IMG/VR virus record: IMGVR_UViG_3300013121_000023
Span: 1-64,000 of that record
Direction: 5' to 3' (one strand)
Origin: a virus
Taxonomy: Duplodnaviria > Caudoviricetes
DNA length: 64,000 nucleotides
Shown here: piece after piece, positions 44,050 to 60,861 of the stretch
Layout of the letters: each line of letters opens with the position of its first letter
Numbering within the stretch: the stretch's first letter is position 1
The notes under the pieces: generated by a model
Database searches by the model: none
Told to the model about the DNA's origin: nothing
What the model saw: only the letters and a program-made list of their open reading frames with translations
Program-made: the position numbers and the translations under genes

Positions 44050-44288
44050 ACGAAGACAAAAAGAAAGCCGCGTATAAGGTTGCTGTGTACGAGGCCGTAA
44101 TGAAGTATCTAGCCAGCAACTACGTAAAGCGCGATGTAACGGCCCCGTTCACACTTATATGTGAAGATGTCATTTACAAAGATCGCGTTGTACCGCAGGA
44201 TACGTTCTTGGAAGTGTTGGCTGTGATTTCTTCGTTGAAAGACCAGTCCAAAAAAGAATACGAAGCGTATGTGGAGATAAAGGAGTAA
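44046..44288 (+). CDS. hypothetical protein
   Basis: ATGA coupling. Confidence 0.55.
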   Translation: MNEDKKKAAYKVAVYEAVMKYLASNYVKRDVTAPFTLICEDVIYKDRVVPQDTFLEVLAVISSLKDQSKKEYEAYVEIKE

Positions 44289-44290
44289 TC

Positions 44291-44812
44291 ATGGCTAACA
44301 GACATGAGAGGCGTAAGCAGGAAGCTGTGGGTAGGAAGTCTCAGGCAGACAAGGATGGTCTGTCGGCTGACGTTAAGATGAGCATGATAGCTGCTCGTCT
44401 GAAATCGTTTGAAGCAGCGCTGGTGGAATCAAATAGGTCGGTAGTCAGTATGTTTCAGCGTATTGACTCATCGCTTATTGTTCACGCAAAGATGCTGGGA
44501 GACCTCAGCCTTGGTGTTGTGGGGGCACATACATCCAAGAAGCCGTGGAACCCTAGCGATGTATCTGGTCCCATGGCTCAGTATTTGCCGTATCATCACG
44601 ATGAATCCGGCCGCATAGACATGTTTGCCTATTTCAAAGAAATCCAGCTGGTGCTTGCTTATTTGGATTTCTTTGTAGTGCTAAAAGAAGAGTTGGCAAA
44701 AGACAGTAAGTCTCTGGAAACAGAGAAAAAGGCCGTAGAGGAAGAGTTGAGTTCTTTCGATATGGTTTATGATGGAGGTGACCATGGAGCCGTCAACGAA
44801 GCGTCGCCCTAA
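44291..44812 (+). CDS. hypothetical protein
   Basis: AAGGAG RBS. Confidence 0.6.
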   Translation: MANRHERRKQEAVGRKSQADKDGLSADVKMSMIAARLKSFEAALVESNRSVVSMFQRIDSSLIVHAKMLGDLSLGVVGAHTSKKPWNPSDVSGPMAQYLPYHHDESGRIDMFAYFKEIQLVLAYLDFFVVLKEELAKDSKSLETEKKAVEEELSSFDMVYDGGDHGAVNEASP

Positions 44813-44978
44813 GCGCATCACCTCAACAGGTGTAAAGGTTCTCAAGGAGCCAGACAGCGGTATGGACACTTTCACCTGTGAATGTGGTGCTGCTGCCCTA
44901 CCGTTTTATGATTCAACCGGCAAGAAGATGTATCATTGCGGCAGGTGTCAGAAGAAGTACAAACCTCTAAACTTCTGA
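44784..44978 (+). CDS. small Zn-ribbon protein
   Basis: GGAGGT RBS; CECG..CGRC. Confidence 0.55.
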   Translation: MEPSTKRRPKRITSTGVKVLKEPDSGMDTFTCECGAAALPFYDSTGKKMYHCGRCQKKYKPLNF

Positions 44979-44988
44979 GGGTTTTGTT

Positions 44989-47166
44989 ATGCCGAACGTA
45001 CCTGTTGATTCGTTTCTAGATGGATTTGAGTCCGAGTTGCTCGGCATAACTAAAGCAGCTTCAGGAGAAGACTCGACTGACGCTGCTCCAAAAGTAAGTC
45101 CTTATCTAGAAGACTATGGTGGGTCTAAACCTACTTCTTCTAGAGTGGATATACCTGATATATACGGTGTGCCAGGCAGGAAGAATACTCGTCTGAGAAA
45201 ACATACAATAAATAAAAGCATCATAAGTGACATACTTGAAAACAAAAGAGAAGAATTGTCTGGTAGAGAAGATCAGGAAAGAATAAATAAACTAAAGAAG
45301 GGTGCTTATCATGCGGCGCTAGCTTCTCCTTTTGCAAGTCTTCCAAAAGGGGTTATTGACTGGCTGGATAAAACTCCAGAAGGAGTAGACCCTCTTGAGT
45401 TGACCGGTATAGATAAGCTAAAGGCTTTGCATGGCGGTAAGTATCACGAGGCATTGATAAAAAAGATAAATGAAACTGCTGACCATGCAGAAAAAGTTAA
45501 GCTGTTTCAAGAGCTAGGTAGAGCAGAAGAAAAAGCACATAATCTTCAAAAGATAACAGCTCTTACGGGGCACCTAGCAACAAAAATACCGGGTAAAGTT
45601 ATTCCGTATGCACTTGCTAGTGCCGGTATAGGAGCCTTGGGTAAAGGTGGGGCTGGTGCGCAAAAACAAGCTCTCAGAGATAAATATCTTAAGTCTTTTG
45701 AAAAAGACAACCTGAGTGAAGAAGATCAGGATAAGCTGCTAGCCAGCCGGTCTAATGTAGCCGCTAGACTACATGTAGACAGCGGTTTGACGGACAAAGT
45801 AACGGCTGGTGACGCTACAAAGGCTTTGTTGGGTGGTGGTGCCTTGGCTGGTGCTACGGCTGGATCTGCTAAGGGTACGCTAGAGAGGTTGCTAGGCGCT
45901 CAACGCTTTTGGCACGGCACAACTAGCGAATCTGGCAAGAACATACTGGAGACAGGTCTAGATCCTGGTTACGGCGGTCGTGTTGGAGGCGCTGCCTGGA
46001 GAGAAACAGCCAGACACAACTTCGCTAATGATCTAGAAAAGCTAATGAATATTGATGTAGCTAAAGATTATTATGGAGAGGGTGCTAAGTACAAACAAAT
46101 AACTGAAAAGAAAATGGATCTCTTGTCTAAACTACAGTCTCTAGGTCTACCGGCTGACCAAGAGAGTGCGCTTATTGGTCATCTAGATCCGACGACGCCA
46201 CATCTCGGACACCTAGACGGTCTAGCTGAGGTAATAAAAAAAGTACGTCCAGGCGTTCGCTCTGATGCTGCTACTCAAGCTGCCCTAAGAAAGGGCAGCT
46301 CTGGGTCAGTTCTTAAGTACCTTGCGAATATGCCAAGTATGCTAGCGAATTTGAACGACCCTGAAAAAATGGACGAGGCAGTTCGCAGGGTATTTGACGC
46401 AGATAAAATGAGAGAAGCTATTGCTTTTCTAGATGATACTCCACTTGCAAACATAGACGCCTCTAATTTCCAAAGAGATGCAGAAGGAAGGGCTTACGTA
46501 GGTATATCTAAATCCGGGCCTAAAGCGTACGCTCGAATGCAAGATCCAGAGGCGTATGCGCGTATGGCCGACAAAGCTCTGAAACCAGATGAGAACGCAT
46601 CTTTGCTGGATAGGCTCAAGGCTGGCCTGAACTATTTTACAGGCTCTACAGAAGAGCCTACACTCATCGGCGGCGTCATGCCGCATGACAAGTTCAGAGC
46701 CACGTTTGAGTCTGATAAAGACGATACCCGGCAGCTAGGCACTGCGTGGCGTACCAACGACGCTAACAGGGTTATTCCTTACCCAGAGGGAAGACCTACA
46801 GCGTATCACACACCTACGGGCGTTATCGGTCCTGAGAACCTAGCTAAAGAGGATGTATCTCTAGCGCAGATACTAAAGAACCGCGCTACCAATATGGGTG
46901 ACTATATAAGAGGTTCTTACCTACCGGCAGAGGAGAGGATGCTTGGTCTCAACAAACGATTCCTATCTGGTCTTGGTAGGGTTGGTGCTCTTGCTGGTAC
47001 TGGCGCAGCGGCTTATCAGTTCGGCGCTAAACCGATGCTAGACAAGCTGAGAGGTAAGCATGTTGTGACTCCAGTCGCAGATACTTCTGCGATGGCGGCA
47101 GAGCAGCTTCGCAAATATCAAGAGGAAGAAGCTGCTAGAAAAGCAGCACAGCCTCAGCCAGCTTGA
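44989..47166 (+). CDS. putative virion protein with ADP-ribosyltransferase-like domain
   Basis: FWHGT..NILETGL and AYVG....PKAYA motifs; N-terminal GFESEL..KAAS; Gly-zipper helices. Confidence 0.6.
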   Translation: MPNVPVDSFLDGFESELLGITKAASGEDSTDAAPKVSPYLEDYGGSKPTSSRVDIPDIYGVPGRKNTRLRKHTINKSIISDILENKREELSGREDQERINKLKKGAYHAALASPFASLPKGVIDWLDKTPEGVDPLELTGIDKLKALHGGKYHEALIKKINETADHAEKVKLFQELGRAEEKAHNLQKITALTGHLATKIPGKVIPYALASAGIGALGKGGAGAQKQALRDKYLKSFEKDNLSEEDQDKLLASRSNVAARLHVDSGLTDKVTAGDATKALLGGGALAGATAGSAKGTLERLLGAQRFWHGTTSESGKNILETGLDPGYGGRVGGAAWRETARHNFANDLEKLMNIDVAKDYYGEGAKYKQITEKKMDLLSKLQSLGLPADQESALIGHLDPTTPHLGHLDGLAEVIKKVRPGVRSDAATQAALRKGSSGSVLKYLANMPSMLANLNDPEKMDEAVRRVFDADKMREAIAFLDDTPLANIDASNFQRDAEGRAYVGISKSGPKAYARMQDPEAYARMADKALKPDENASLLDRLKAGLNYFTGSTEEPTLIGGVMPHDKFRATFESDKDDTRQLGTAWRTNDANRVIPYPEGRPTAYHTPTGVIGPENLAKEDVSLAQILKNRATNMGDYIRGSYLPAEERMLGLNKRFLSGLGRVGALAGTGAAAYQFGAKPMLDKLRGKHVVTPVADTSAMAAEQLRKYQEEEAARKAAQPQPA

Positions 47167-47167
47167 G

Positions 47168-47220
47168 TAGCTAAAGAAGAACACTAAATGGCAGGCTCTC
47201 TCAGCCTGCCATTTTGTTTT
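47168..47220. terminator. bidirectional terminator
   Basis: AAATGGCAGGCT-ctctc-AGCCTGCCATTT between convergent genes; TAGCTAAA at 47168. Confidence 0.8.
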
Positions 47221-48111
47221 TCACGTTAGCTTCTTAACTATCAATTCATTGTTTATGAAATCCTGTATATACGCAGGGTATTTCACTAGTGTGTACTTCA
47301 GGTCTCTAACAATTGATTGCCTATCGGCATATTTATGACTACAGATATAGCGTATTTTGTATATACAGATAAGAACCTCTATGTTGTCGTCCATCCACAT
47401 GATTGGAAGTACCGGGTTTCTGAACAGTGCCATTAGCATACTGCCCCAATATATTTTATAATTGTTAATGCTAACAGTACTGTCTACTTTACGGGTACAT
47501 ATGCTTTTAAGATCTTCCAAGGTTGAAACATTTTCAAGATCGTTGATTACACTCAGTATTGTTGAATCATTGGGTTGTACGTACCACCAAGGTTCACTTA
47601 CGCCACTCAGTGCGTAGGTGCCTCTTATGTACGATCTGTACGCTTCTATCGTTGAAGCATCTGTTTTCTCTTTGGAAGAAAACCTCTTCGGAACACAGGC
47701 TACAAAGGTAGTTCTACTACCAAAAGGTGGCTTAGTACCGTGTTTCATAACATGCCTTAGCATGCGCAGCCGACTCGAAAGATGCGCACTATCCAAAACG
47801 TCTCTGTGTATCGGTACTTTTCCGCCTACAATCTCTGTTATGTAGGACACAAACCAATCCCAATTACCACTGCTACGACCCAGCCACCGAACACATGGAT
47901 GGTTAGGTATCGATGTTATAAATGGTTTCTTTGTTGTCTGGCTTATTGGAGTGATTCCTCCGTTTTCCTTTGATATTTCTCCAAACATACCGATTGCGTC
48001 TTTGATTATGTCGCTCCTTTTATTCATTGGTACACAACGAGCTGACAGTATCGGGTCTTCGTCTGAAACAAGTATGTTCATACTCAACACCTGCCTAGGT
48101 CGGTACTTCAT
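47221..48111 (-). CDS. pyrimidine-dimer glycosylase-like domain fused to NPxLP-family domain
   Basis: MNILVSDEDP, NHPCVRW..SGNWDW, EAYRSY pattern; C-terminal RNPVLPIMW. Confidence 0.6.
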   Translation of the reverse strand: MKYRPRQVLSMNILVSDEDPILSARCVPMNKRSDIIKDAIGMFGEISKENGGITPISQTTKKPFITSIPNHPCVRWLGRSSGNWDWFVSYITEIVGGKVPIHRDVLDSAHLSSRLRMLRHVMKHGTKPPFGSRTTFVACVPKRFSSKEKTDASTIEAYRSYIRGTYALSGVSEPWWYVQPNDSTILSVINDLENVSTLEDLKSICTRKVDSTVSINNYKIYWGSMLMALFRNPVLPIMWMDDNIEVLICIYKIRYICSHKYADRQSIVRDLKYTLVKYPAYIQDFINNELIVKKLT

Positions 48112-48515
48112 CTTTTTGCTCTTTTTCTGAGATGGTCTTTTACGTAGTTAGGTATCACTTCGCTATAGTTGCTATCCAGCCAAGCTACTACATCTTTCAA
48201 TACCAATTCTATTCCATGATCTACATCATGATCCAAGTTATCTATCAGTGTTTTTATAGCACCCACCATACACGATGCGATAATGTCGGCTTCCTTTTCA
48301 TTTGTAAATAGTACCGGTAGCACAGGATTACTTAGTAGGGCGTTCATGTACTCAGACAAAACTTCCTGGCTGGAAAACGCATTGATAATAAACATATCGT
48401 TAAACAACCGGCTTATGCTTTCCGCACTATCAGCTTCGTTTGTTCTCTGTATATACCTCCTTATTACTATTTTTCTCATTACGTGGTTTATTTTACTGTT
48501 TTCTATCACTATCAT
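48108..48515 (-). CDS. NPxLP-family protein
   Basis: SNPVLPVLF. Confidence 0.65.
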   Translation of the reverse strand: MIVIENSKINHVMRKIVIRRYIQRTNEADSAESISRLFNDMFIINAFSSQEVLSEYMNALLSNPVLPVLFTNEKEADIIASCMVGAIKTLIDNLDHDVDHGIELVLKDVVAWLDSNYSEVIPNYVKDHLRKRAKR

Positions 48516-48910
48516 GGGCTTATCCAAGTCATTGGAAACCTATCTTGCCTAGCCCTAGCGTAATCAACTATATATTGCGGTGCTCCTATAGATTTAAGGC
48601 AGTCAGCATCCATATAGTACCTTTTTTTAGCATCGGTATAGTACGTACCGGGTATTTCCGTTTTTTTCACGTAATTGTCGACCAAGGCATATCTAGTGCG
48701 TTTCACTATAGCTATCAGCGCCCTAAAGGTTTCATCCTCTCCCAGAAACCAGGCGATATGCAGCATCGGCATATTCATAATCCTTTTTAGTAGTTCTACT
48801 ATTTCTTCGCAGCTTAGCTTTGTGCTGATTGTTCTAGCGGTCAGTAGAAACCATTTTGGATTTTCTTCCTCAGCTAGTTTGTCTATTGCTTCCGCAAAAT
48901 AACTTGTCAT
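48512..48910 (-). CDS. NPxLP-family protein (divergent)
   Basis: NMPMLHIAW. Confidence 0.6.
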   Translation of the reverse strand: MTSYFAEAIDKLAEEENPKWFLLTARTISTKLSCEEIVELLKRIMNMPMLHIAWFLGEDETFRALIAIVKRTRYALVDNYVKKTEIPGTYYTDAKKRYYMDADCLKSIGAPQYIVDYARARQDRFPMTWISP

Positions 48911-49403
48911 AGCTGGCACTGTATGCGTCTAGCACTTCTTTGTATAGATTGATCGAGGCTTTAAACACCTTTTTGTTTACCTCTTCAAATGTTTTCTTCA
49001 TGTACATAGGTATGTTGATATGCGGACTACTTCTGTTTGTATCGCACAGTCGTATCCTTTGACTACTGGTATGTTCATACGTAAGTACTTTGACTTCAAT
49101 GAGTATGTACAATGCAGATGAGATCATATCCATGACCATACTGTGATGTTTTTGCATGCATATTCGTTCATAACCGATTGTTACGTAGGTACACTCCTCT
49201 GTGTATTCCATCCATATGACTGGTAGTACTGGGTTGTGGAGTAGCGCCACTACGTAGTCCCGGGAATATGTGTAATCCTGGGAATCATGAACTGTGTACG
49301 AGCGGCCACCGCCCTTCCCAAGTATCGATTCTATGGCATCGATAAGCTCCAGTGCTGTGTGGGCGTTATGTAGTGCATTTATATTGTCTTTTCTGTGCGT
49401 CAT
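48900..49403 (-). CDS. NPxLP-family protein (TTA-terminated; standard ORF to 48870)
   Basis: HNPVLPVIW; TTA at 48902-48900. Confidence 0.6.
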
Positions 49404-50128
49404 ATCAACGTATCCTCCAGATCGTCCAACATTTCTTTCAGGTTTTTTATTTCGTCTTTATTGATCTGAACGAAATGGTCTATTATGTACTTGGGAGCAC
49501 CTACTTCATGCAGTATTCTAACTGCGTAAAATTTGTGTACACTAACATTATTCATGTGTATTTTGATGCAGTCTATAAAAGAGGTGTCCAGTATGTCACT
49601 TATAATTGACTCCATTGAGTCCATATGATCGTGCCAAATAATGGGTAGGCACGGATTTTCTATTATTGCTCGCAGTAGCAGTATTAGTCGCAGTGAGGTT
49701 CCTCTCTGAACAGCTTTATTTATATTGATTTGTTTTTTGGCATTTTGTACCGCTATATTTATGCTAGGCGCTGAATCGGCTTCTACTATGGCTTGTAGTG
49801 CATCTGCTTCTTGTTCCGATTTAACTAGCTCTTTTATCGCTACTACCGGTATTGGTGTACTCGATTTATCCCAAGGTATGCTCCAGTGTACATTCAGATT
49901 TCTGTTCGTATTGTGAGCCTTTATACATCTTTCGCAAGTCACTACCCGTATGTCATTAGCGTACCTAAGTCCGTTTTGATTAATGTATATAGGAGGTTCT
50001 TCTATTGAATCGTTACACGGAGTACCTTTTCTTATAGTGGAAATGTCTTTCATGTTTGTGCAAGCCAGGTATATATCGTCATCCATAGCATTTACGCACA
50101 GATGTATGTATTCCGGTTGTTTCGTCAT
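49400..50128 (-). CDS. NPxLP-family protein with N-terminal H/C Zn-like module
   Basis: H..C..VTCERC; ENPCLPIIW. Confidence 0.65.
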   Translation of the reverse strand: MTKQPEYIHLCVNAMDDDIYLACTNMKDISTIRKGTPCNDSIEEPPIYINQNGLRYANDIRVVTCERCIKAHNTNRNLNVHWSIPWDKSSTPIPVVAIKELVKSEQEADALQAIVEADSAPSINIAVQNAKKQININKAVQRGTSLRLILLLRAIIENPCLPIIWHDHMDSMESIISDILDTSFIDCIKIHMNNVSVHKFYAVRILHEVGAPKYIIDHFVQINKDEIKNLKEMLDDLEDTLI

Positions 50129-50901
50129 TTATTCATATATTTTGTCAGCGCCTTTATGGCAGTTGTTATTTTAGCTTCCGTTGATTCGTTAAACTTAATG
50201 AAATTGTGTTTTAGTTGCGGTGGAATACCCAACTTGTCCAATGTGTACATATTATACAAATAGAAGCAGTCTCTTATGGACTTGCTACAGCCCCAACGTG
50301 TGCCAGTTCTTAGTAGTGCTTCCTCTATATATGATAGTAGACACATTATGCTGTAATTGCCTGGATTGATGTACGCATCTCCAGTAACAGCTACTATTGG
50401 ATGTGTAAAAACTACCTTCATTACGTAAATAGCCACTGCCCTAGCTATTCTAGCCGCTGTATCTATATCTTTGATGTACTCGTTTGTGTATTCCAGTTCA
50501 CCGGCTACAGTCGATATAAGTACTATAATATCGTTTATGCTATCGGCCTCGGATAGTCCTCGGTCAAAAGAACTAATAGCGAAATTAAGCCGTTTCCCGA
50601 AATTATGACTATCGATAGTTCTAAATACAAGATAGTCCAACTCTTTTTTTACGTGGACAACATCAAACTCGTCGTAATTTTTTGGTGTGTTTACCCAGAC
50701 ATCGTTAGTAAAAGAGAATCCATCTACAAGCTCTATGCATTCTTCACATGTTACTTCTAGTTTGTTAACCGTCGCCAATACGTCTCTTTTATCTATACTA
50801 TATACGTATTTACCTGACACAAGCCTTATTGCAAGTGTTTCATTTGTACAAGGTATACGTGCTATCGACCCAGCGACGACGAACAAATGGATAGGTTCCA
50901 C
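50125..50901 (-). CDS. NPxLP-family protein with N-terminal H/C Zn-like module
   Basis: VTCEEC; THPIV; start GTG 50901 after GAGGAAAGG. Confidence 0.6.
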   Translation of the reverse strand: MEPIHLFVVAGSIARIPCTNETLAIRLVSGKYVYSIDKRDVLATVNKLEVTCEECIELVDGFSFTNDVWVNTPKNYDEFDVVHVKKELDYLVFRTIDSHNFGKRLNFAISSFDRGLSEADSINDIIVLISTVAGELEYTNEYIKDIDTAARIARAVAIYVMKVVFTHPIVAVTGDAYINPGNYSIMCLLSYIEEALLRTGTRWGCSKSIRDCFYLYNMYTLDKLGIPPQLKHNFIKFNESTEAKITTAIKALTKYMNK

Positions 50902-50903
50902 GA

Positions 50904-51320
50904 TTAAAACCTTTCCTCGTAGAAACGAGACCACTCTTTCAGACTTCTGTCTTCCCGTATGTAATCATGGGTACCCAAATATATTAGGTAATCAGTGTCT
51001 TTGTCCAAAATAATCAAGTAATGCAGAATGTACTGTATGGTGTGAAGCACTATTCTCTTATCTTGTAGCCAGAGTATAGGTAGCACAGGTAGACGTATTA
51101 CGTGCTGCAACGCTTCTGTTGCTGATTTGATGACGTTACGCCTATCATCCTCTGTTAGTTTACTTATGTTACTGTCTACCCAAAGCCTATGCTGAAATCT
51201 ATTGGATCTGTCTTGTGTCGTCCACATTTTCAATTCTTGTATACTAGCAACATCATCCAGTATTTTTAGGTCTCCAAACATGTTTACAGTAGACCAATCA
51301 GTACTAACCGTCCTGCTCAT
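50904..51320 (-). CDS. NPxLP-family protein
   Basis: RLPVLPILW. Confidence 0.6.
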   Translation of the reverse strand: MSRTVSTDWSTVNMFGDLKILDDVASIQELKMWTTQDRSNRFQHRLWVDSNISKLTEDDRRNVIKSATEALQHVIRLPVLPILWLQDKRIVLHTIQYILHYLIILDKDTDYLIYLGTHDYIREDRSLKEWSRFYEERF

Positions 51321-51567
51321 AGTTTTCAATCCAGTTCCACAAACATACTTCTGCGTTTACAGGTTTTGTTTTATGCTTACCGCAGTGAATACACTCATAT
51401 ATAAATAGATAATAGTGTTGTTCTTTTTTGCATATCGAACATGGTCTTATCTGTATTTCTACACGCTCCTTGAAATGAAATACGTGCCTTGAGAAGAAGC
51501 ATTTGATCTTGTCCATGTAGGTGCTTTTGTGCTTTTCTTCTTCATGATGCTCTCTATATGGGTTCAT
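51304..51567 (-). CDS. small Zn-ribbon protein (MNPYR paralogue)
   Basis: CSIC..CIHCG. Confidence 0.6.
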   Translation of the reverse strand: MNPYREHHEEEKHKSTYMDKIKCFFSRHVFHFKERVEIQIRPCSICKKEQHYYLFIYECIHCGKHKTKPVNAEVCLWNWIENYEQDG

Positions 51568-51845
51568 AAGTCCAGCATACCTCCTGGCATGTGCTCCCAG
51601 CATTTGTCATGCGAATATGGTTGAAGTGTTACTACGATTCCGCATCTGCTACATATTCGCGCAGTACGTGTATGCGTCTGTTGTGCTCCGCATACGTAAC
51701 AGCTAGCATCCTTGAACACTATCAGTTTTATCTTTTCGTGGTTGTGGCCAATCAGATTACATACCAGTTTTCGTATCCAGTCTACGGTAGTAGGTTTTTT
51801 CTCAGTAACATCCTCGTCTTTGTGTGCTTTTCTGTATGGGTTCAT
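51564..51845 (-). CDS. small Zn-ribbon protein (MNPYR paralogue)
   Basis: CNLIGH, CYVC..CSRCG. Confidence 0.6.
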   Translation of the reverse strand: MNPYRKAHKDEDVTEKKPTTVDWIRKLVCNLIGHNHEKIKLIVFKDASCYVCGAQQTHTRTARICSRCGIVVTLQPYSHDKCWEHMPGGMLDL

Positions 51846-52684
51846 ATGACGCCAGCCAACTTAAACACATCAAGCACTGAATCTTTGCATTGTTGATAGT
51901 CTTTTAGGTGAGACTTAAGTAGCTCTTCTTTTATGTATGACGGTATTTCCAATTTTTCCAACATCTTTATGTTGTACAGTGTCGCTACATCTTCATCTAT
52001 TTCTTTTGCCGTACTTGTTTTTCCTACTGCTATGTGAAATACACAGTCTGGTATCATTTCTATGATAATGCTCATTTTTCTAATCATTATTTCTTCTGGG
52101 TTGCTCACCCATATGATGGGTAGCATCGGGTTTCGGAATATACTGATAAGTGCTGTGGTGGCTATCCTAGATATGACGAAATACACATCTGCGTGTTTGT
52201 TATTTTCTTTCGTTATTTCTTTGAATTCTGCCACCTCTTTTCTAAGAAGATTTATGAGTGATTCTAGCTCAGGCAGTGTAGCTGCCGTACACATGCACTC
52301 TTGCAAATTGTGCATTGCTTGTATTTTGAGCTTAATGCGGTCTTTATTATCAGGACCAAATACGTTCCGCATTTCTATTTGTTCCATAAACACTTCTCTA
52401 GGGTATGTAGTTTGTATGTTTCTAGAAGCGCAAGTAAATAGTTTAGCTACATTTACACCACGATTGTTTAGCCTGGCAGCAGATTGGCAGTATGTACATG
52501 TCACTTCGCTGTACAGGTAAGAATGCATCTGTACTATCAGTTTTTCACCCTGTGGAGATGTAGCCTCCTTCGGTTTTACAGAGAAGAAGTTTTCTTTTCG
52601 GTCGTATTCGTATTGGTACTCTTTACACCATATGGCTATTTTTTCGCCCACCACAAACCCGTAATGAACCATCTCGTCGCTCAT
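51842..52684 (-). CDS. NPxLP-family protein with N-terminal H/C Zn-like module
   Basis: VTCTYC; RNPMLPIIW; GGCATAAGA motif and AGAGG RBS upstream. Confidence 0.65.
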   Translation of the reverse strand: MSDEMVHYGFVVGEKIAIWCKEYQYEYDRKENFFSVKPKEATSPQGEKLIVQMHSYLYSEVTCTYCQSAARLNNRGVNVAKLFTCASRNIQTTYPREVFMEQIEMRNVFGPDNKDRIKLKIQAMHNLQECMCTAATLPELESLINLLRKEVAEFKEITKENNKHADVYFVISRIATTALISIFRNPMLPIIWVSNPEEIMIRKMSIIIEMIPDCVFHIAVGKTSTAKEIDEDVATLYNIKMLEKLEIPSYIKEELLKSHLKDYQQCKDSVLDVFKLAGVI

Positions 52685-52716
52685 GGTACCTCTTGGTTCT
52701 TATGCCAGCTATCCAA

Positions 52717-52753
52717 AGCAAAAAGCCCAAGCATCTTGAAGATGCCTGGGCTT
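52717..52753 (-). terminator. intrinsic terminator
   Basis: Minus strand AAGCCCAGGCATC-ttcaa-GATGCTTGGGCTT-TTT, with one G.U pair. Confidence 0.7.
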
Positions 52754-52771
52754 CGTGCTTACCTCTTGCCT

Positions 52772-52966
52772 ATGCAACTGAAGGTAACACTGGTCGATGG
52801 GTGTACGATCCTTGACTCTGCCAAGCCGGCTGACGTAAAGACAGCCGTTGAGCAGAAGCTAAGGGAGTTCGACGAGAAGATGCAGCAAACTGGATGGGAA
52901 CCATTGATTCCATCCGAGCAGGCTCTTCTCCGAACCTTCTTGCTGTGGTCTCTAAACGAGCACTGA
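52772..52966 (+). CDS. small hypothetical protein
   Basis: 64-aa tail of the tracked ORF with protein-like composition. Confidence 0.5.
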   Translation: MQLKVTLVDGCTILDSAKPADVKTAVEQKLREFDEKMQQTGWEPLIPSEQALLRTFLLWSLNEH

Positions 52967-53174
52967 GCAGCTTGTTCTGGGAGTGAGCAAAGGCATGGGC
53001 TTCGTCCTCTTCAGAGAAGAGAAGCACCAGGATGCCGCCGCAGTCAGCAGCGTCTTCCTTTTCTCTGCCTACTCGCACCCTTATTACTTCGTACTCAGCG
53101 ATCCCTAGCGGCTCTATAACAGCGAACATCGCGCACCTCTCTGTTTCTGGCTCCCTCCTGCGGTAGCCGTACAT
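52953..53174 (-). CDS. hypothetical protein (TTA-terminated; standard ORF to 52770)
   Basis: TTA shrinks a ~195-nt antisense overlap to 14 nt. Confidence 0.5.
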
Positions 53175-53214
53175 ATGTACGTAAGAATATAAGCTATTTG
53201 GACATAAGCAAGAG

Positions 53215-53652
53215 TCATCCGTACGTTTTTAGTATCGCTTTCTTAATTTTCTCAAAAGCTCTGGCAAACCATTGATCGTCCATAGCCCGGTTTACGATCG
53301 ATATGTCTGGGTAGGGAGTTACGTACATCTCAGATGCCCTGTCCTTTCGTTGCCCTATGAACAAGATGTAGGGTGCTGTGTACAAAAACGACTCACCTGA
53401 TGGCTTATCGGGCGACGGCATACCCCTTACGTAAGTGGTACGTACGTCTTCGGAACGAAGATCGTACAGTTCGACCAACTTATCGAAGGAATGCCTTTTC
53501 AGCAGGCCTTTGTAACTTCTGTGCTTTTGAAAGCCCTCGGGTGCTTGTTCGTCCCCAGCTATTTTTTTTAGATAGGAGGACAAGCTTTTTGGAAGGCCTA
53601 TGATTCTACCGCCTCTTGGTACATCTTCGGTCAAAAGAACCCCAAATTTCAT
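53215..53652 (-). CDS. hypothetical protein
   Basis: GAGGTG RBS. Confidence 0.65.
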   Translation of the reverse strand: MKFGVLLTEDVPRGGRIIGLPKSLSSYLKKIAGDEQAPEGFQKHRSYKGLLKRHSFDKLVELYDLRSEDVRTTYVRGMPSPDKPSGESFLYTAPYILFIGQRKDRASEMYVTPYPDISIVNRAMDDQWFARAFEKIKKAILKTYG

Positions 53653-53699
53653 GGGTACACCTCTCTATATATCTAATGACATATTGTTCTGTTTTTGAG

Positions 53700-53737
53700 T
53701 AGCTAAAAATGAAAGAAGCCCCGGATGACGGGGCTTC
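53700..53737 (-). terminator. hairpin terminator with TTTAGCTA tail
   Basis: GAAGCCCCG..CGGGGCTTC inside the standard-code ORF 53665-54138. Confidence 0.75.
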
Positions 53738-53742
53738 AAAAA

Positions 53743-54138
53743 TAAAATGTATTTCTCTGCTTTCTTTGTGAATTTTTCCCAGAACTCGTCAATGTAGTTT
53801 TGTGTGCCCTCTATATCGTACCACATGGAGTAATCATATTCATCCGAATTAATGCCTGCCAGATTGACGAATGCAATGATGTCTGCGAGAATGCTCAACT
53901 CTAGATTGAACTGTTTACCAATGTTGAGTTCCAACAGGTCATTGCACAATGTCAACTCACGCTCATCCTCAATGTAGTGCAGCAGTGCCTCCTTGTAGTT
54001 CCCCGCGCAGGCGGACAACATTATCACATCTCCGAAATCTTCAATGTTCACATCGCTCTCAAAGCCCTCTTTGGGCAGAGTTGCCCAGACTCTCTTGGCC
54101 ACACTGTGCAGTACCCCGTTAACTTCTTCTGCTTTCAT
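53743..54138 (-). CDS. acidic hypothetical protein (TTA-terminated; standard ORF to 53665)
   Basis: Own promoter motif and AAGGAG RBS; TTA 5 nt before the terminator stem. Confidence 0.65.
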
Positions 54139-54230
54139 GGAAGAAAACTCCTTTCATATTTCTTATGTCGTTAAATATTGAGTATTTGCTGGTAGCTAAA
54201 ATAGAGGCGGCTGCGCCTCTAAAGACTAGA

Positions 54231-54581
54231 TTAGAGATTAAAGATTAGACAGTAAATTGCAAACACTGGTGTGCCTTTAATGAAATGCCTAGTCCGCCCC
54301 CGCCTCCCCCGCCTCAAATTTTCCTGAAACTCATTGTTTTTCTTTGAAGAAAAGTGTCTGTATACCGATTGTTCCTGCCCATCTTCATCATATGAGGTTA
54401 CTGTGAGTCGTCTCCCCCATAGAGAGGGACCGTATGATACGACAGTGCCGTCATTGAAAATGATTTCTGTCGATTGTGAGTGCCACAACTGTTTAATGAC
54501 GTAGCACCTAGCATCAATGCACAATTTCTGTTTAATGCCTTCCACCATCTCAAACACCTTACCATTTTCGGTATAATTCAT
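54231..54581 (-). CDS. hypothetical protein
   Basis: GGCATAAGA motif, AAGGAG RBS, terminator near 54193-54221. Confidence 0.6.
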   Translation of the reverse strand: MNYTENGKVFEMVEGIKQKLCIDARCYVIKQLWHSQSTEIIFNDGTVVSYGPSLWGRRLTVTSYDEDGQEQSVYRHFSSKKNNEFQENLRRGRRGRTRHFIKGTPVFAIYCLIFNL

Positions 54582-54678
54582 AACGAACTCTCCTTTCATA
54601 TATCTTATGCCACTTTTTTATTGTATTTGTTTATTTCCGGTAGCTAAAAAGAAAGATTGGTTTGTTCTATGCGGTGAC

Positions 54679-54965
54679 AAAAAAAAACGCTTGCATGACT
54701 GGTAGTGGTTCGCGCGCACCACCACCAGCCTCTCAATCACACTGTACTAGCTGTGACTGATTCGAACGGCCGCAAGCATTTGCCGTCCTACACCTGCTAC
54801 TAACGAACGGACCTACAGGTATTGGTCCGTTCCCGACTTAGCTCGTCAGTCTCGTCGGGTAGACTGACTGTCCTGATGACTTTTACAGTCATCTGCAATC
54901 TCGGTCAGATAAAATTGACCTTTTCAGGCTCGGACATGCCCTAGGATGGAACTTCCTTCCACCAT
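54679..54965 (-). ncRNA. candidate multi-pseudoknot ncRNA 1
   Basis: No long ORF; about 7 stems with three loop-to-downstream pairings; G.U pairs favour minus strand; promoter motif upstream and T9 run downstream. Confidence 0.65.
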
Positions 54966-55008
54966 TATTCTTATAGCACCAATTACTGTATTTTTTCCTT
55001 ACCTCAAG

Positions 55009-55044
55009 TAGCTAAAAAGAAAGCACCGTATGTGGTGCTTTCTT
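55009..55044 (-). terminator. hairpin terminator with TTTAGCTA tail
   Basis: AAGAAAGCACC..GGTGCTTTCTT-TTTAGCTA. Confidence 0.75.
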
Positions 55045-55350
55045 ATTGCCTCAGCATGTCTGCGCACGTACGCATAAACGCTGTCTGTGAGAGGGCAACG
55101 CTCTCATTCATTGCAGCCCATTCTGCAATACTCGCCTCACCCAAGACTTATACGTGCGTCTTGGTTAATTCGTCGCTACCGGCGCTCAGCGACGCGATGT
55201 GGCGGTCAAACACCACCATCCGTGGCATCGAGCCACGGTTTTCCCTTTACAAGGTTGGCTGGTACAACCTTGTACACGTGACCCCTTGCCTGGTTTTGCC
55301 CAGGCTTTGGGAATTAGACGTTTCGGCCGGTCGGGCATTCCGGCCTAGGT
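55045..55350 (-). ncRNA. candidate multi-hairpin kissing-loop ncRNA 2
   Basis: About 10 consecutive hairpins; complementary loops CACGTA/TACGTG; GC-rich island in an AT-rich region. Confidence 0.6.
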
Positions 55351-55848
55351 ATGTTTTCTTTTCATACCTTTTTTCTTATTACGTTTTATGTTCATGAATT
55401 TCTTTCTTGATTTATTCTTTCTTTTTGCCGTTACTGCTTTGGCCAACCATGGTGGCAAAAGTGTGTCGTCTGATTTGGCCATTCTTGCAAGCCACTGTGG
55501 ACTGTCTTTTATCATTGTAAGTACTGAACTTACTTTTTGTATAATTGTAGATGAGAAAAGCACCACCTTTGTTATTGGGTGGTCCAAAAACAACTTCAAT
55601 GCCATCTTTTTCATAGGTCGAGTGACCCTTACTATGTCATATATGTGAGGATGGTATCTGTTGTTTTTAAAATGCGCCCGCGTTATTACGTGACACGATT
55701 TGCCATACGCTATCTCCAATATTATTGAGCTTATTGCTATTCCCGGGTTGCATTCGTTACATGCGTAAGTGTAGTCTATAAATTCTTTCATGTATTTTTC
55801 ATATGCGTGCATCTCGTATCGTTTGTTACATTCCTTCATATGCCACAC
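55345..55848 (-). CDS. NPxLP-family protein (divergent)
   Basis: DHPITKVV; Lys-rich tail. Confidence 0.55.
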   Translation of the reverse strand: MWHMKECNKRYEMHAYEKYMKEFIDYTYACNECNPGIAISSIILEIAYGKSCHVITRAHFKNNRYHPHIYDIVRVTRPMKKMALKLFLDHPITKVVLFSSTIIQKVSSVLTMIKDSPQWLARMAKSDDTLLPPWLAKAVTAKRKNKSRKKFMNIKRNKKKGMKRKHT

Positions 55849-56359
55849 TCCTCAAATATCTGCACATCGTGCTTGTGAACGACTCGCTGACATTAAACTT
55901 TGTGAATGTGGATTCTATTAGGTCTACTTCTTTTTTGGCTACTGTTACACCAGCCATTACTGTTCTTGGAGTTGCGTATTTATCTGCTAGAAATAGGTAT
56001 ACACAGGCCGATATGACTCTACTAAGATGGCCGTCCTGCATCAATACTGTCAATGCTGGGTTTGCCTTCACTGCTCTTGCAATGCGCCTCTGCCTTATCT
56101 TAATGATTTCCTTTTTGTACTCTACGTCGTCTATCGCCCCAGTTGTAAAGCATTTACTATCCATCAGATATTCTATTTGATGGACATGTTCAGGCGATTC
56201 CGCTATGAGAATAAGGGCCAGTAGATAGTCAGAAATGTATTCCATTTCTTCTATATTCACTACTACGTATTCTTGGCTCAATTCAAGTGGCGTATCAGTT
56301 ACATTGTTTGCCCATTTTATTGAATATTTACCCTTTTCATATTTTGATTTTTTCGCCAT
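55826..56359 (-). CDS. NPxLP-family protein
   Basis: ANPALTVLM. Confidence 0.6.
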   Translation of the reverse strand: MAKKSKYEKGKYSIKWANNVTDTPLELSQEYVVVNIEEMEYISDYLLALILIAESPEHVHQIEYLMDSKCFTTGAIDDVEYKKEIIKIRQRRIARAVKANPALTVLMQDGHLSRVISACVYLFLADKYATPRTVMAGVTVAKKEVDLIESTFTKFNVSESFTSTMCRYLRSVAYEGM

Positions 56360-56865
56360 ATATCTCCATCTCCCTACTATCCAATGCAAAACACAAACCC
56401 TGCATCTTTTTCACGTCTTTGTATGCGTATTTCTTTATTTGCCTATATATGTACTTTGGAAACCTACCTGCTACTACCAAGTAAGCTGCATCCATAGCAT
56501 TAAATTCGTAAGTGCTGCCTATTTGAGGCTGCTCGAAGTCCTGGTTCTGATAGTAGTGCAGCGGTCTCGTCCTGTCACAAAAATGAAGTGCAAAGACGGT
56601 TATCAGGTGGGAACTACCTGTTTCCCACAATACTGGAATACATGGGTTTGTTCCCATGTTCTTGAATATCTCTGCGTAGTACCCAGATTCTGATGTTGAT
56701 GCATCTGGGATTCTATATTTTGTCAGTAGTGTGGCCGCTTTGTACAGTTCCTCTCGCGTACTCCATTTGTGCATAAGTGCGTATAGAAACTGTATCTGAG
56801 CCCCCTCTACTTCTATACCGGCACACGCCTCTTCAAACGAGTATGTCAACGAGTATGTCATCATA
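56337..56865 (-). CDS. NPxLP-family protein
   Basis: TNPCIPVLW; ATG directly after GGCATAAGA. Confidence 0.6.
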
Positions 56866-56934
56866 TATCTTATGCCTACTTTTAATTCCGAGTAGCTAAA
56901 GAAAGGAGACCCGCGGGGGTCTCCTTTCAAGCGC

Positions 56935-57177
56935 TAACTTTCCGGTGCCGGTGCCGGTGGCGGCGTTGGGGGCGGCGTTGTGGGCGGCGTGGTGGAGCAC
57001 CACCACATCCGGGGCGATGCCAAGTCTCCTAGCCACCGCTATCACCGCCAGGGCACCCGCTGCCGCGAGAGCACCCTTCGCCAGGGATGCCGCCCCGGCC
57101 GCCGCCCCGGCCTTTGCCAGGGCGCCGTAGTCGATACCACCGTTGTTGTTGTTGGCGTTGCCGTTGTTTTCGGACAT
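56935..57177 (-). CDS. small Ala-rich membrane protein (TTA-terminated; standard ORF to 56896)
   Basis: GC-rich codons; terminator GAAAGGAGACCC..GGGTCTCCTTTC-TTTAGCTA follows the TTA. Confidence 0.65.
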
Positions 57178-57258
57178 GATATGATACCTTCCTTTCATTA
57201 TTCTTATGACAGGAACATACATATTTTTTCCATATGTATGCCTGTCAAAATAATTAAC

Positions 57259-57663
57259 TTAGTCAACAGTATAGTTAGTCAACAGTATAGTGCGTTTATA
57301 TGCAATGTGTGCCTCGATTGCCAGTTCCTCGTCATCGAGGCCATTGATCATTGCCATAAACTGGTAATGCGACTTTGCTACGAAGTACAATGTGAAATAA
57401 CTGTCACTAACAGGGGCCATTGTTATCGCCCCCCTAATAGATTTGCCGACTAGATTGCGTACATGCTTATCCAATGACTGTACGTTGTTCAATGTCTCAA
57501 TGAAGTCCTTGTCCAGTACACATTTCACTGGAATGATGACTGCTGCGCCCTCGTCCAGCAGCCTGTGTTCATTGAGGAACCTCCTCGCCATTGCGGTCTC
57601 ATTCGCATTTACCGCAATGGTATTTTTTACGACGGTTACCGCCAGTGATAGCCACTCTAGCAT
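57259..57663 (-). CDS. hypothetical protein
   Basis: AAGGAGGT RBS plus promoter motif. Confidence 0.7.
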   Translation of the reverse strand: MLEWLSLAVTVVKNTIAVNANETAMARRFLNEHRLLDEGAAVIIPVKCVLDKDFIETLNNVQSLDKHVRNLVGKSIRGAITMAPVSDSYFTLYFVAKSHYQFMAMINGLDDEELAIEAHIAYKRTILLTNYTVD

Positions 57664-57731
57664 GGGAACCTCCTTTCTTTTCGATGATTCCCATATTCTT
57701 ATGCCAGAAAAAGGCTTATTTTTGCCTGTAT

Positions 57732-58214
57732 TTACACTACTACAGTTACCCCTTCTGATAGGCTATTAGCCGCCTCTATCCCCATGTCATAGGCTGTCTT
57801 ACTACGTTTGTTATCACCTTTTGTTACAAACTCCGCACCTTTGTCCAATGACTGTACATCTTCTACGGAAGCGACGAAGAACAGAGTTCTTCGCACATCA
57901 AAGATAATTGTACTTATAGACGTATTTCCCCTGTCTATGTACATATATAGTACATTGCCCCATATGGAGCTGTTTGACTCCTCTGACAATATGGCTTGTA
58001 CCGAACCGTCCAATAGTTCAGCAATGGCCATCATTATGATGGACCATGTTTTAGGTTCTGCCGAACAGTTGTTTATCCTCTCGTATGTTTTTGGGAATAC
58101 ACTGGGCTCCTCGCTCGGGTCTATTGTTTCCTTTATCAACTCTCTGACCAAAATTGTCTGCGCAGGTGTAATGTTAAGCTTGAACAACCAGAATTTCTTG
58201 TCGTCGATATTCAT
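57732..58214 (-). CDS. hypothetical protein
   Basis: AAGGAG RBS. Confidence 0.65.
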   Translation of the reverse strand: MNIDDKKFWLFKLNITPAQTILVRELIKETIDPSEEPSVFPKTYERINNCSAEPKTWSIIMMAIAELLDGSVQAILSEESNSSIWGNVLYMYIDRGNTSISTIIFDVRRTLFFVASVEDVQSLDKGAEFVTKGDNKRSKTAYDMGIEAANSLSEGVTVVV

Positions 58215-58216
58215 GA

Positions 58217-58657
58217 TCAGCTCCTTTTGAATCGCAGCAATTCTTCGGCCAGCATCAACAATACGTTTTCTTCTTTTGTGTTCAGTGCCATCCTTCTTAT
58301 TACTTCTTTTATGGCAGTTACGTCTCTCTCTAGATTTTCTGTTTTTACTTTATCTAGGTATCTAGCTATCTCATTATATGTGTACACACCCTTTAGGCAC
58401 GCTATCATTAGTATGATACTTATTTGTCTTGGAGATGACATATTGAGTATGCTGAAACATGGGTTTCCTATCAGGTTTTTAAGTATGACTGTTCTATTAA
58501 GTGTTATAGTGTCCGGGCTAGCATAATCTAGCATCATGCAAATATTATCTAGGTCTTCTACGCATTCCGCATTACTTACTTTCATTTTTATTTCATTGGA
58601 CAGATTTTCTTGTGTTAGGCGTGAATAGCTATTAGTAGTCATAGGAAGTTTCATCAT
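58217..58657 (-). CDS. NPxLP-family protein
   Basis: AECVEDL..GNPCFSIL. Confidence 0.6.
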   Translation of the reverse strand: MMKLPMTTNSYSRLTQENLSNEIKMKVSNAECVEDLDNICMMLDYASPDTITLNRTVILKNLIGNPCFSILNMSSPRQISIILMIACLKGVYTYNEIARYLDKVKTENLERDVTAIKEVIRRMALNTKEENVLLMLAEELLRFKRS

Positions 58658-59114
58658 TATCGTCATTATTTGTCGTATGACTCTCAAGTTGAGCCACACA
58701 TAGCAAGAACTTGTTTGTTATTTTACCTAGCTGTGCTTCTTTTATTATTCTTATAGCCATCTGTAGCCTACCTATTGATAGTGTTTTCCCTTCGTAGCTA
58801 TCGTATACGTCTCTAACCGAGAGATGTGGATACGCTGTAACTATTAGTAGTAGACTTTTTATGTGCCCTTCGTTAGTGAAAAGTAGCATGTCTATACAAG
58901 GGTTTTTTGCCAAGGCTTTCAGATAGTATCTCGCGTTGTCGCGTATAGATTCAGACGGCTGGTAGTCAAATACCCTCAGTATCATATCCATATCTCTAGT
59001 ACATTCCATATTTTCTATTGCATAAACTATATTTTCTACATTACTATGGGTTTGGTCATCAAAAATTTTCAAGGCCTCTTCGCGCGTTATATCGTAGTTT
59101 TTTGGTGCGCACAT
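58632..59114 (-). CDS. NPxLP-family protein
   Basis: KALAKNPCI. Confidence 0.6.
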   Translation of the reverse strand: MCAPKNYDITREEALKIFDDQTHSNVENIVYAIENMECTRDMDMILRVFDYQPSESIRDNARYYLKALAKNPCIDMLLFTNEGHIKSLLLIVTAYPHLSVRDVYDSYEGKTLSIGRLQMAIRIIKEAQLGKITNKFLLCVAQLESHTTNNDDNDETSYDY

Positions 59115-59116
59115 TT

Positions 59117-59539
59117 TTACACCTTTCTTATCAATGGGTCTGACAGCAGCTCGTATACGCAATCGGTAAGCATCCTAATAGCTACTCCGTCTTCGTTTTT
59201 AAGCTCCCATTCTACCATTTCCACAGCTTCGTGTACGCTAACAGATCTAACACGTCCGTTTGTATATTCGTAGTGTTGCCCCGTTAGACTTATAGTAGGG
59301 TTGGCTAGCAACATAACTATTGTCTGAATATGTTTGAGGTAGTTCAGTATGAGCACGGGCAAACACGGATTTCTTACAAGTGCTACCAGAATACTGTGTT
59401 TATTATCGGTTATGACCGATGATGGTAGGTAATCTATGCGGTCTATGATTTGTTCCAGACCTTCTCTGTCTTCGACGTTGCTTACAGAGTAAATGATATC
59501 TATGTTTGGATTAAGTCTATGATTAGGAACTATAATCAT
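59117..59539 (-). CDS. NPxLP-family protein
   Basis: ALVRNPCLPVL. Confidence 0.65.
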   Translation of the reverse strand: MIIVPNHRLNPNIDIIYSVSNVEDREGLEQIIDRIDYLPSSVITDNKHSILVALVRNPCLPVLILNYLKHIQTIVMLLANPTISLTGQHYEYTNGRVRSVSVHEAVEMVEWELKNEDGVAIRMLTDCVYELLSDPLIRKV

Positions 59540-59939
59540 TCAGTACTTCTCGCAATAGATTTGCTACTGTATTCATTAGGTACTTATCCATTTTTATGTT
59601 CGTAGCAATCATATCGAACGTAGTGATTGTTTTAATCACTTCACTTCTAGCAACTCCGAGTTTATTGTTAATAGTGTCTTCAATGTCTGCTGATGTGTTA
59701 TCGACGAAATTTAGAATTATCAACAGTATTGTTTGTATAACTTTTCTATCATTTAGAATGAATATGTGTATGCACGGGTTACTTGCTAGCGCTTTTATAT
59801 ATAGCGTTCTGTAGTTTTCTATTTTCCACCCCTCCATCCCGTCCAACTCCCAGATGATATTAGCCAGATCTTCCCTGCTACTGGCTTCTGATATGAGTTT
59901 TAGCATGTACTCTGCGTTATCAACTTTGTTATCTACCAT
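59523..59939 (-). CDS. NPxLP-family protein
   Basis: ASSREDL..KALASNPCI; AAGGAGG RBS. Confidence 0.65.
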   Translation of the reverse strand: MVDNKVDNAEYMLKLISEASSREDLANIIWELDGMEGWKIENYRTLYIKALASNPCIHIFILNDRKVIQTILLIILNFVDNTSADIEDTINNKLGVARSEVIKTITTFDMIATNIKMDKYLMNTVANLLREVLNDYSS

Positions 59940-59981
59940 TTAGCCCTCCTTGCGTATCACATACCATCAAGTACGCAGAAG

Positions 59982-60788
59982 TTAGGATTGTGGATCATAA
60001 AACAACTCCCTTATGCACGCTTCCATCAGGGCTTCTTCTTTTGTTTCTAGTGTGCTACTTTCAAAATGATATCTGAGATTATTGATAGCTTCGTCTATCT
60101 CCGACTCAGAAAAGTCTTTATGATCACATCTACTAAACATTGAATTGCTGTAGAATGTGAGCAGTATCATCATCAGTAGCTCTTGAACGTAAGTTGTATT
60201 TGTAGTAATTAGCTTAGGCAAACATGGATTAGATGACAGTGCCCTTATGTAGTGACCCCTATTAAGTACAGTAAGTTCAATATCCATGCGATTCATACTG
60301 TATAGTATTTCTCGTATTCCGTCTATTCTATTTACACTTCGTAGCATTTCTACTACATCTTGTGCATGTACTTCTGTAATTGAATCGTTTGAGTTGTCGG
60401 TGTGGTTCACATAGTTTTCTATTTCACTAAGGCATTCTATGACCGCATTTGATACAGCACAATCAACACTTACTTTTCTACTAATGGCCCTAAGTAGGCT
60501 AATTGCCTGTTTTACCTTCAGCTTATTAAGCTCACGACGTTCTATCATGGCATGGATATCTACTGAGTGTGTGTCTTGGTATCTTGTTATTATCAGCAGT
60601 ATTTTCTGTATGTATAGTCTATTGAGTACCATAAATACGGGTGTACATGGATTTTTAAGAAGCGCCTGTACATACTTAAATCTGTTCCTTAGTATTATTA
60701 CTTCATTAGTAACATTCAGTATTCCCAGCACGTTCTTTAGTTCATCCTCGCAGCTAGCTTCGAGTAGCGCTGTTTCTACCTTGTCCAT
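59982..60788 (-). CDS. NPxLP-family protein with two tandem domains
   Basis: ALLKNPCTP and ALSSNPCLP; AGGAG RBS. Confidence 0.7.
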   Translation of the reverse strand: MDKVETALLEASCEDELKNVLGILNVTNEVIILRNRFKYVQALLKNPCTPVFMVLNRLYIQKILLIITRYQDTHSVDIHAMIERRELNKLKVKQAISLLRAISRKVSVDCAVSNAVIECLSEIENYVNHTDNSNDSITEVHAQDVVEMLRSVNRIDGIREILYSMNRMDIELTVLNRGHYIRALSSNPCLPKLITTNTTYVQELLMMILLTFYSNSMFSRCDHKDFSESEIDEAINNLRYHFESSTLETKEEALMEACIRELFYDPQS

Positions 60789-60861
60789 AAATACACTCCT
60801 GCGAACATATCACTTGTTAAAGGCTCATAGCTCTTATGTCAAAAAGTGGTAGTATTTGGGC

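Follow-up and report, generated by a model that had tools for sequence, protein, structure and literature searches.

Which product, if any, is encoded in the largest stretch without open reading frames (ORFs) in a tailed phage whose genome is 92.6% covered by standard-code ORFs? The IMG/VR record of this phage comprises 177,132 bp, with 141-bp direct terminal repeats, a GC content of 46% and a gene for the large terminase; its bases 1–64000 constitute the window, the 64,000-nt stretch analyzed here. With the exception of the tRNA cluster, the gap at window positions 54600–55345 is the largest ORF-free gap in the genome. It holds a minus-strand element, ncRNA1, for which a first-pass annotation made from the sequence alone (54679–54977) had proposed a novel non-coding RNA with three stacked pseudoknots, its own promoter-like motif and a U9 end. 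Judged from its sequence, we hold with moderate confidence that ncRNA1 is a real structured non-coding RNA gene, one that is probably specific to a single phage lineage. If real, it would represent a family not described before, extending the expanding catalog of stand-alone structured RNAs from large phages, and its two-pseudoknot core is compact enough to be approached directly by structural methods and pull-downs, its weight being limited by its occurrence in one phage lineage only.

The gap and its predicted transcription signals

The gap is embedded in a block of small minus-strand orphan genes (~47–61 kb) that belong to no Pfam or PHROG family. This block is missing from the complete genomes of two phages in its group, which share ~50–56% terminase identity and genome-wide synteny with the phage studied here. 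A 17-kb stretch of such small orphan genes (window 44000–60800), containing both of the structured RNAs described below, corresponds to only ~3.8 kb in relatives (G001 174848–178615). The 17-kb block is a hypervariable accessory region. Within it, ncRNA1 has a GC content of 51%, against ~39–44% in its neighborhood.

Protein coding does not account for the gap. No ORF located wholly inside 54600–55345 exceeds 64 aa, and exact look-ups of the small ORFs returned no match. One longer plus-strand ORF of 121 aa (55032–55397) overlaps the upstream end of the gap; used as bait, it retrieved zero relatives among 1.84 billion representative proteins and is regarded as spurious. The only plausible mini-ORF within ncRNA1 is preceded by a Shine-Dalgarno-like AGGA that is lost in the strain-level relative L039. 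With the ORFs short, the 121-aa exception lacking relatives and the mini-ORF signal not conserved, a protein-coding origin of ncRNA1 was rejected. A TAG- or TGA-recoded ORF across the gap was also rejected, as recoding did not improve coding density and no recoded ORF filled the ncRNA1 stretch.

The gap carries putative signals for both ends of a transcript, as follows.

54989–54995, minus strand: upstream promoter element AAAAATA at a -35-like position, common to other copies of the phage motif
54963–54977, minus strand: promoter core GCTATAAGA-ATA-ATG, of the form YATAAGA-NNN-ATG that is repeated genome-wide
54679–54687, minus strand: U9 run immediately past helix H6 (U8 in L041), a probable intrinsic terminator tail
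54640–54648, minus strand: TTTAGCTAC, a terminator-linked 9-mer marking a possible second 3' end ~40 nt beyond U9

The promoter-like motif reported at 54969–54977 proved to be one copy of a recurrent signal, AAAAATA-N-(G)GYATAAGA-NNN-ATG, of which the genome contains at least 11 copies, all upstream of gene starts and one directly before a CUA tRNA, and which has no TTGACA-type -35 element. Example sites include window positions 54603–54609, 54969–54975, 57202 and 3177. The motif is a predicted promoter that would drive protein genes, ncRNA1 and a tRNA. The copy at 54969–54977 would place the 5' end of ncRNA1 at ~54965–54963, at the foot of hairpin H1.

At the other end, the U9 run was located at 54687–54679, in agreement with the first-pass annotation, and lacks the local GC hairpin usual for terminators in this phage. 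The 9-mer TTTAGCTAC is present in 21 genome copies against 1.35 expected, mostly just after a GC-rich hairpin and a T-run (for example, at window 54640–54648, 55008–55016 and 54192–54200), and is a putative phage-specific signal linked to terminators or processing. Transcription would start at this promoter-like copy of the phage motif and yield a separate RNA of ~290 nt extending from H1 to U9, or of up to ~325 nt with read-through to the TTTAGCTAC signal. Helix H6, which closes the 3' domain, would double as the terminator together with U9.

Directly upstream of ncRNA1 lies a second structured unit, ncRNA2 (window 55008–55372, minus strand), with ~ten hairpins and a folding z score of -7.3. 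Its frame, of the same promoter-terminator type as that of ncRNA1, consists of a separate TAATAAGA motif and a canonical terminator made up of a hairpin and TTTTTAGCTAC; the unit is 98.8% identical in L039.

Predicted tandem pseudoknots and the 3' domain

The minimum free energy (MFE) of the minus strand is -118.4 kcal/mol (z = -5.7 relative to dinucleotide shuffles), and that of the plus strand is -98 kcal/mol. This asymmetry of ~20 kcal/mol is attributable to ~nine minus-strand G.U pairs, which appear as C.A mismatches on the plus strand, as had been claimed. The energy is low without being extreme, falling within the top ~2% of GC-corrected 290-nt windows covering ~161 kb of the 177-kb genome, and the four minus-strand windows that cover the gap occupy ranks 26–53 among 2222 over the same ~161 kb. 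Within the scanned windows, hairpins are densest at G000:C1:136560–136900 (GC-corrected MFE of -4.9 sd), where several perfect 13–14-bp hairpins are located between convergent ORFs.

All helices listed in the first-pass annotation were found on the minus strand, including the hairpins at 54893–54875, 54920–54903 and 54730–54697, and two further hairpins, H1 (54963–54945) and H7 (54760–54733), were added. The resulting architecture comprises the following elements.

54945–54963, minus strand: H1, 5'-terminal hairpin GGUGGAA/UUCCAUC with loop GGAAG (pair probability 0.90; invariant in relatives)
54903–54920, minus strand: H2, hairpin GGUCA/UGACC (pair probability 0.99)
54875–54893, minus strand: H3, 7-bp hairpin with a GUAAA pentaloop (pair probability 0.99)
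54832–54868, minus strand: PK-A, H-type pseudoknot with S1 of 8 bp, L1 of 1 nt, S2 of 6 bp (CCCGAC/GUCGGG), L2 of 1 nt and L3 of 7 nt
54790–54832, minus strand: PK-B, H-type pseudoknot with S1 of 9 bp, L1 of 1 nt, S2 of 8 bp, L2 of 1 nt and L3 of 7 nt
54685–54788, minus strand: 3' domain, in which the 11-bp H6 closes a three-way junction with H7 (54760–54733) and H8 (54730–54697)
54788–54782/54770–54764, minus strand: local stem competing with H6

The PK-A stem (54868–54861/54852–54845) consists of 8 Watson-Crick pairs, and its loop CCCGAC (54859–54854) is exactly complementary to GUCGGG (54837–54832). The PK-B stem (54832–54824/54813–54805) consists of 9 Watson-Crick pairs, with its loop UACCUGU pairing with GCAGGUG (54797–54791); this loop pairing extends to 8 bp, AUACCUGU/GCAGGUGU (54822–54815/54797–54790), including two G.U pairs. 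PK-B begins at the final base of PK-A, such that the two units abut, and the lengths of all three loops are identical in both. As predicted from sequence, each unit displays the classical H-type geometry, in which the loop pairs downstream, an L1 of 1–2 nt crosses an S2 of 6–8 bp and an L3 of at least 6 nt crosses an S1 of 8–9 bp. The S2 duplex energy is -9.5 kcal/mol for each pseudoknot. In nested folding, S1 of PK-A competes with S2 and reaches a pair probability of 0.46, which is how a nested algorithm would see a real pseudoknot.

A strict H-type descriptor (S1 with at least 8 Watson-Crick pairs, S2 with at least 6 pairs) matched 10 sites in 1.11 Mb, a total that counts both strands in each of three related phage genomes. 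PK-A and PK-B account for two of these 10 matches and form the sole tandem; the corresponding probability (p ~1e-3) is indicative only, since the descriptor was written after the site had been seen. The descriptor scan found no tandem pseudoknots in G001 and G002. Overall, the RNA would fold into three 5' hairpins followed by the two abutting pseudoknots and the 3' three-way domain, and the pseudoknots could stack as one quasi-continuous rod of ~30 bp.

The proposal of three stacked pseudoknots is only partly supported: two predicted units have textbook H-type geometry and are statistically unusual, but the third is sterically impossible in full. Its 7-bp stem (54788–54782/54770–54764) is present, and the 11-nt loop is complementary to 54695–54685 (11 bp, two G.U); however, the two pairings cannot fully coexist, because pairing all 11 loop nucleotides would leave zero-length linkers across a 7-bp closing stem, making them two competing structures. 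The nested ensemble assigns a probability of 0.92 to the long-range helix H6 (54781–54771/54695–54685) and of 0.00 to the local stem. We therefore favor a model in which the element is a long-range helix of 11 bp that would close a three-way 3' domain adjoining the U-run.

These two mutually exclusive structures share the terminator strand, a feature that would fit a cis-acting role for ncRNA1, either as a structured leader or attenuator of the downstream 122-aa gene, with read-through depending on whether the local stem (54788–54764) or the terminator helix H6 forms, or as a stabilizing or insulating module between cassettes. The atypical terminator, the second terminator-linked motif 40 nt downstream and the shared orientation of ncRNA1 and the next gene point the same way. 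That gene, however, has a complete promoter copy of its own (54609–54603) between U9 and its ribosome-binding site, an attenuator needs far less than 290 nt, two pseudoknots and five hairpins, and no riboswitch or leader family matched the locus. We consider a cis-acting role unlikely.

Relatives and substitutions

Beyond the window, ncRNA1 was found in strain-level relatives only, carried by the short metagenome contigs L039 (Logan, 8 kb), L041 (ENA) and L042 (Logan), which were reached via cluster members and exact look-ups of neighboring proteins and in which it is 98–100% identical. Wider searches returned no match; these comprised blastn in distant mode of ncRNA1 against 50,697 phage records, both flanking proteins against viral contigs, an alignment of the upstream protein and its relative against metagenome contigs, and structure-tolerant DNA patterns for PK-A and PK-B in viral contigs and genome contigs. 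The exact PK-B 20-mer was absent from the metagenome contigs searched. Against the relatives with ~50% terminase identity, namely G001 and G002 (both complete) and G003–G005, blastn and a 290-position covariance model (R1) recovered self-hits only.

L039 differs from the window by five substitutions in ncRNA1. The 54915 A>G change, shared by L039 and L041, converts A.C into a sixth G-C pair atop H2, and 54787 G>A (L039) converts G.U into A-U. Two L039 changes, 54752 A>G and 54741 U>C, are compensatory and convert A-U into G-C in H7, while 54742 G>A (L039) opens a two-pair apical extension. By a hand calculation, a second substitution among five would fall on the partner position and introduce the correct base with a probability of ~1–2%. 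PK-A and PK-B are invariant across all relatives available. L041 lacks one C from the PK-A loop and one U from the U-run, both of which may be assembly errors.

Across the four sequences (three distinct), the 92 proposed pairs are 99.3% paired. The covariation count in these near-identical sequences, a single compensatory pair plus a single change from G.U to A-U, is not statistically significant, being equaled by 159 of 500 shuffles. Divergence between L039 and the window is 1.7 per 100 nt in ncRNA1 and 1.2 in ncRNA2, compared with 3.8 (54231–54599), 9.1 (55345–55848) and 11.6 (53665–54138) in adjacent genes, and is ~0 in several other neighboring genes. Because strain divergence in this region is mosaic, ranging from 0 to 11.6 per 100 nt with some neighboring genes 0% diverged, the low divergence of ncRNA1 lends it mild support only.

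The compensatory and pair-improving substitutions argue against the possibility that the locus has no RNA function and that an RNA fold is mimicked by the inverted repeats of a decayed cassette, a terminator-type hairpin cluster or a DNA element such as an origin or a recombination site. So do the ~20 kcal/mol strand asymmetry carried by G.U pairs and the complete promoter and terminator frame. A replication origin was rejected, as GC skew tracks transcription direction only, with no turning point at ncRNA1, and the locus contains no iterons or tandem repeats. An absence of RNA function would nevertheless fit an orphan that is missing from the ~50%-terminase relatives and sits in a hypervariable block, in a genome with other hairpin-rich spots; we judge it improbable.

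Known RNA classes and possible roles

The first-pass annotation had assigned ncRNA1 to no family, and the Rfam scan gave the same outcome, with 0 matches at gathering thresholds in the 64-kb window. A search of 1.1 kb around ncRNA1 with Rfam 15 at E <= 10 yielded nothing relevant and no tmRNA-clan match, the best sub-threshold match being GcvB on the opposite strand (18 bits versus the 42 needed). For a functional ncRNA1, protein binding is the most plausible mechanism, given that nearly all nucleotides are paired and no target is evident. Acting in trans, the RNA could serve as a stable decoy or scaffold to which a protein of the host or of the phage binds, a mechanism that we put forward tentatively and regard as possible rather than probable. 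The fast evolution of the orphan genes around it hints at an accessory role in interaction with the host.

Pseudoknots of the T2/T4 gene 32 leader type are single cis-regulatory mRNA sites bound by gp32. The ncRNA1 units resemble them in having a 1-nt loop 1, a 7-nt loop 3 and coaxially stackable stems of 6–9 bp, and differ in that two of them abut within one stand-alone RNA, each with one extra nucleotide at the stem junction.

GOLLD and ROOL are large orphan structured RNAs of 580–800 nt found in phages and prophages (Rfam; PMC12286853). Like them, ncRNA1 is phage-borne, heavily structured and predicted to be independently transcribed; in contrast, it measures 290 nt, has no covariance-model match, occurs in one lineage only and displays no sign of self-assembly. 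Contacts between RNAs, in which ncRNA1 would pair with the neighboring ncRNA2 or with copies of itself in the manner of the large "ornate" phage RNAs that form RNA-only assemblies, are suggested by the side-by-side arrangement of two structured units and by an ncRNA2 hairpin loop that contains CCCGAC, identical to the PK-A loop hexamer complementary to GUCGGG. However, 42 of 200 shuffles equal the best duplex energy between ncRNA1 and ncRNA2, there are no conspicuous palindromic kissing loops and neither GOLLD nor ROOL matches, leaving such contacts very unlikely.

Type III antitoxin RNAs (ToxI and the pseudo-ToxI of phage PhiTE) consist of pseudoknot units in tandem repeats (PMC3475682). ncRNA1 shares with them pseudoknot-forming units of ~37–42 nt, with a terminator and then a small gene downstream, but its two units have unrelated sequences and do not form a tandem repeat, and the downstream protein has no ToxN/AbiQ-like match. 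A type III antitoxin is defined by near-identical 34–45-nt tandem repeats adjoining a gene for a ToxN/AbiQ-type endoribonuclease; TRF detected zero repeats, and the flanking proteins belong to no ToxN/AbiQ-type Pfam or PHROG family, so this class was rejected. VIPR vrRNAs carry 9–16 tandem YNNGG (GGY/NN) repeats followed by a structured tail (bioRxiv 10.64898/2026.04.26.720920). ncRNA1 is likewise a small phage-encoded RNA with a structured, pseudoknotted part, yet GGYNN units never occur three or more in a row within 54600–55400, and assignment to this class was rejected. An antisense regulator was rejected because no complementarity of at least 14 nt exists within the phage genome, and a CsrA-type GGA sponge because the ~six GGA triplets, counted by eye, are near chance expectation.

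The serial pseudoknot layout recalls PK2–PK4 of tmRNA (SsrA), an RNA of ~300 nt with serial H-type pseudoknots that some phages carry. The two abutting H-type units do form a consecutive pseudoknot string, a tmRNA feature that does not alone define tmRNA. ncRNA1 differs from tmRNA in the absence of a tRNA-like domain, a tag frame, any ARAGORN or Rfam match and sequence similarity. Consistent with the earlier remark that no tRNA-like domain is visible, ARAGORN was silent in 54500–55500 at the 95% and 85% thresholds and returned mismatched junk calls only at 70%; at default thresholds, it found no tmRNA in the window or the genome. The T-loop-like GUUCGAAUC at 54767–54759 is buried within helices, and the sole GCA-starting frame of ncRNA1 encodes ADDCKSHQDSQSTRRD before a stop, without degradation-tag character by eye. 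With ARAGORN and the Rfam models silent and no CCA end context, a tmRNA, a permuted tmRNA and a tRNA-like RNA were all rejected.

The distant relative G001 (IMGVR_UViG_3300037851_000572; 190 kb, 64% GC) encodes a canonical one-piece tmRNA (117402–117751, minus strand) with the tag ANDNATAALPIAA. This tmRNA has zero similarity to ncRNA1, and the phage studied here has no tmRNA.

The codon usage of the phage gives these comparisons a wider context. TTA occurs 135 times in frame genome-wide versus 923 times in the +1 frame, and at 2.55 per 1000 codons versus 17–20 for other Leu codons, making it ~sevenfold rarer. On these counts, UUA appears strongly avoided in frame and may be used as a stop. 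Such usage suggests an altered reading of UUA, which makes any RNA-based accessory function in this phage of interest; no tie between ncRNA1 and the TTA depletion was found.

One conceivable tie is a headless pseudoknot-string RNA that would bind or block the host tmRNA-SmpB system or act itself at stalled ribosomes, to which we give very little credence. In both versions, the products of UUA-terminated genes would evade tagging and subsequent breakdown. The link to UUA rescue that had been floated for ncRNA1, here as a tmRNA-like rescue RNA or host tmRNA-SmpB decoy tied to UUA avoidance or to UUA as a stop, is barely tenable: the likeness to PK2–PK4, the strong depletion of in-frame TTA and the true tmRNA of G001 would favor it, against a missing acceptor/T-arm domain, CCA end context and plausible tag reading frame, the silence of ARAGORN and the Rfam tmRNA models, the dissimilarity to the tmRNA of the relative and the burial of GUUCGAAUC. 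Both the tmRNA analogy and the UUA-rescue link are unsupported.

Three further observations concern decoding in this phage. The gene at 53665–54138 contains TTA only at codons 131, 144 and 154 of 158, near its apparent end. TAG recoding does not improve coding density, and nine tRNAs, none with anticodon UAA, are clustered at 123.4–126.3 kb. A further, lone tRNA with a CUA anticodon (amber-suppressor type) is encoded at G000:C1:135413–135485 on the minus strand, behind the same promoter motif that precedes ncRNA1.
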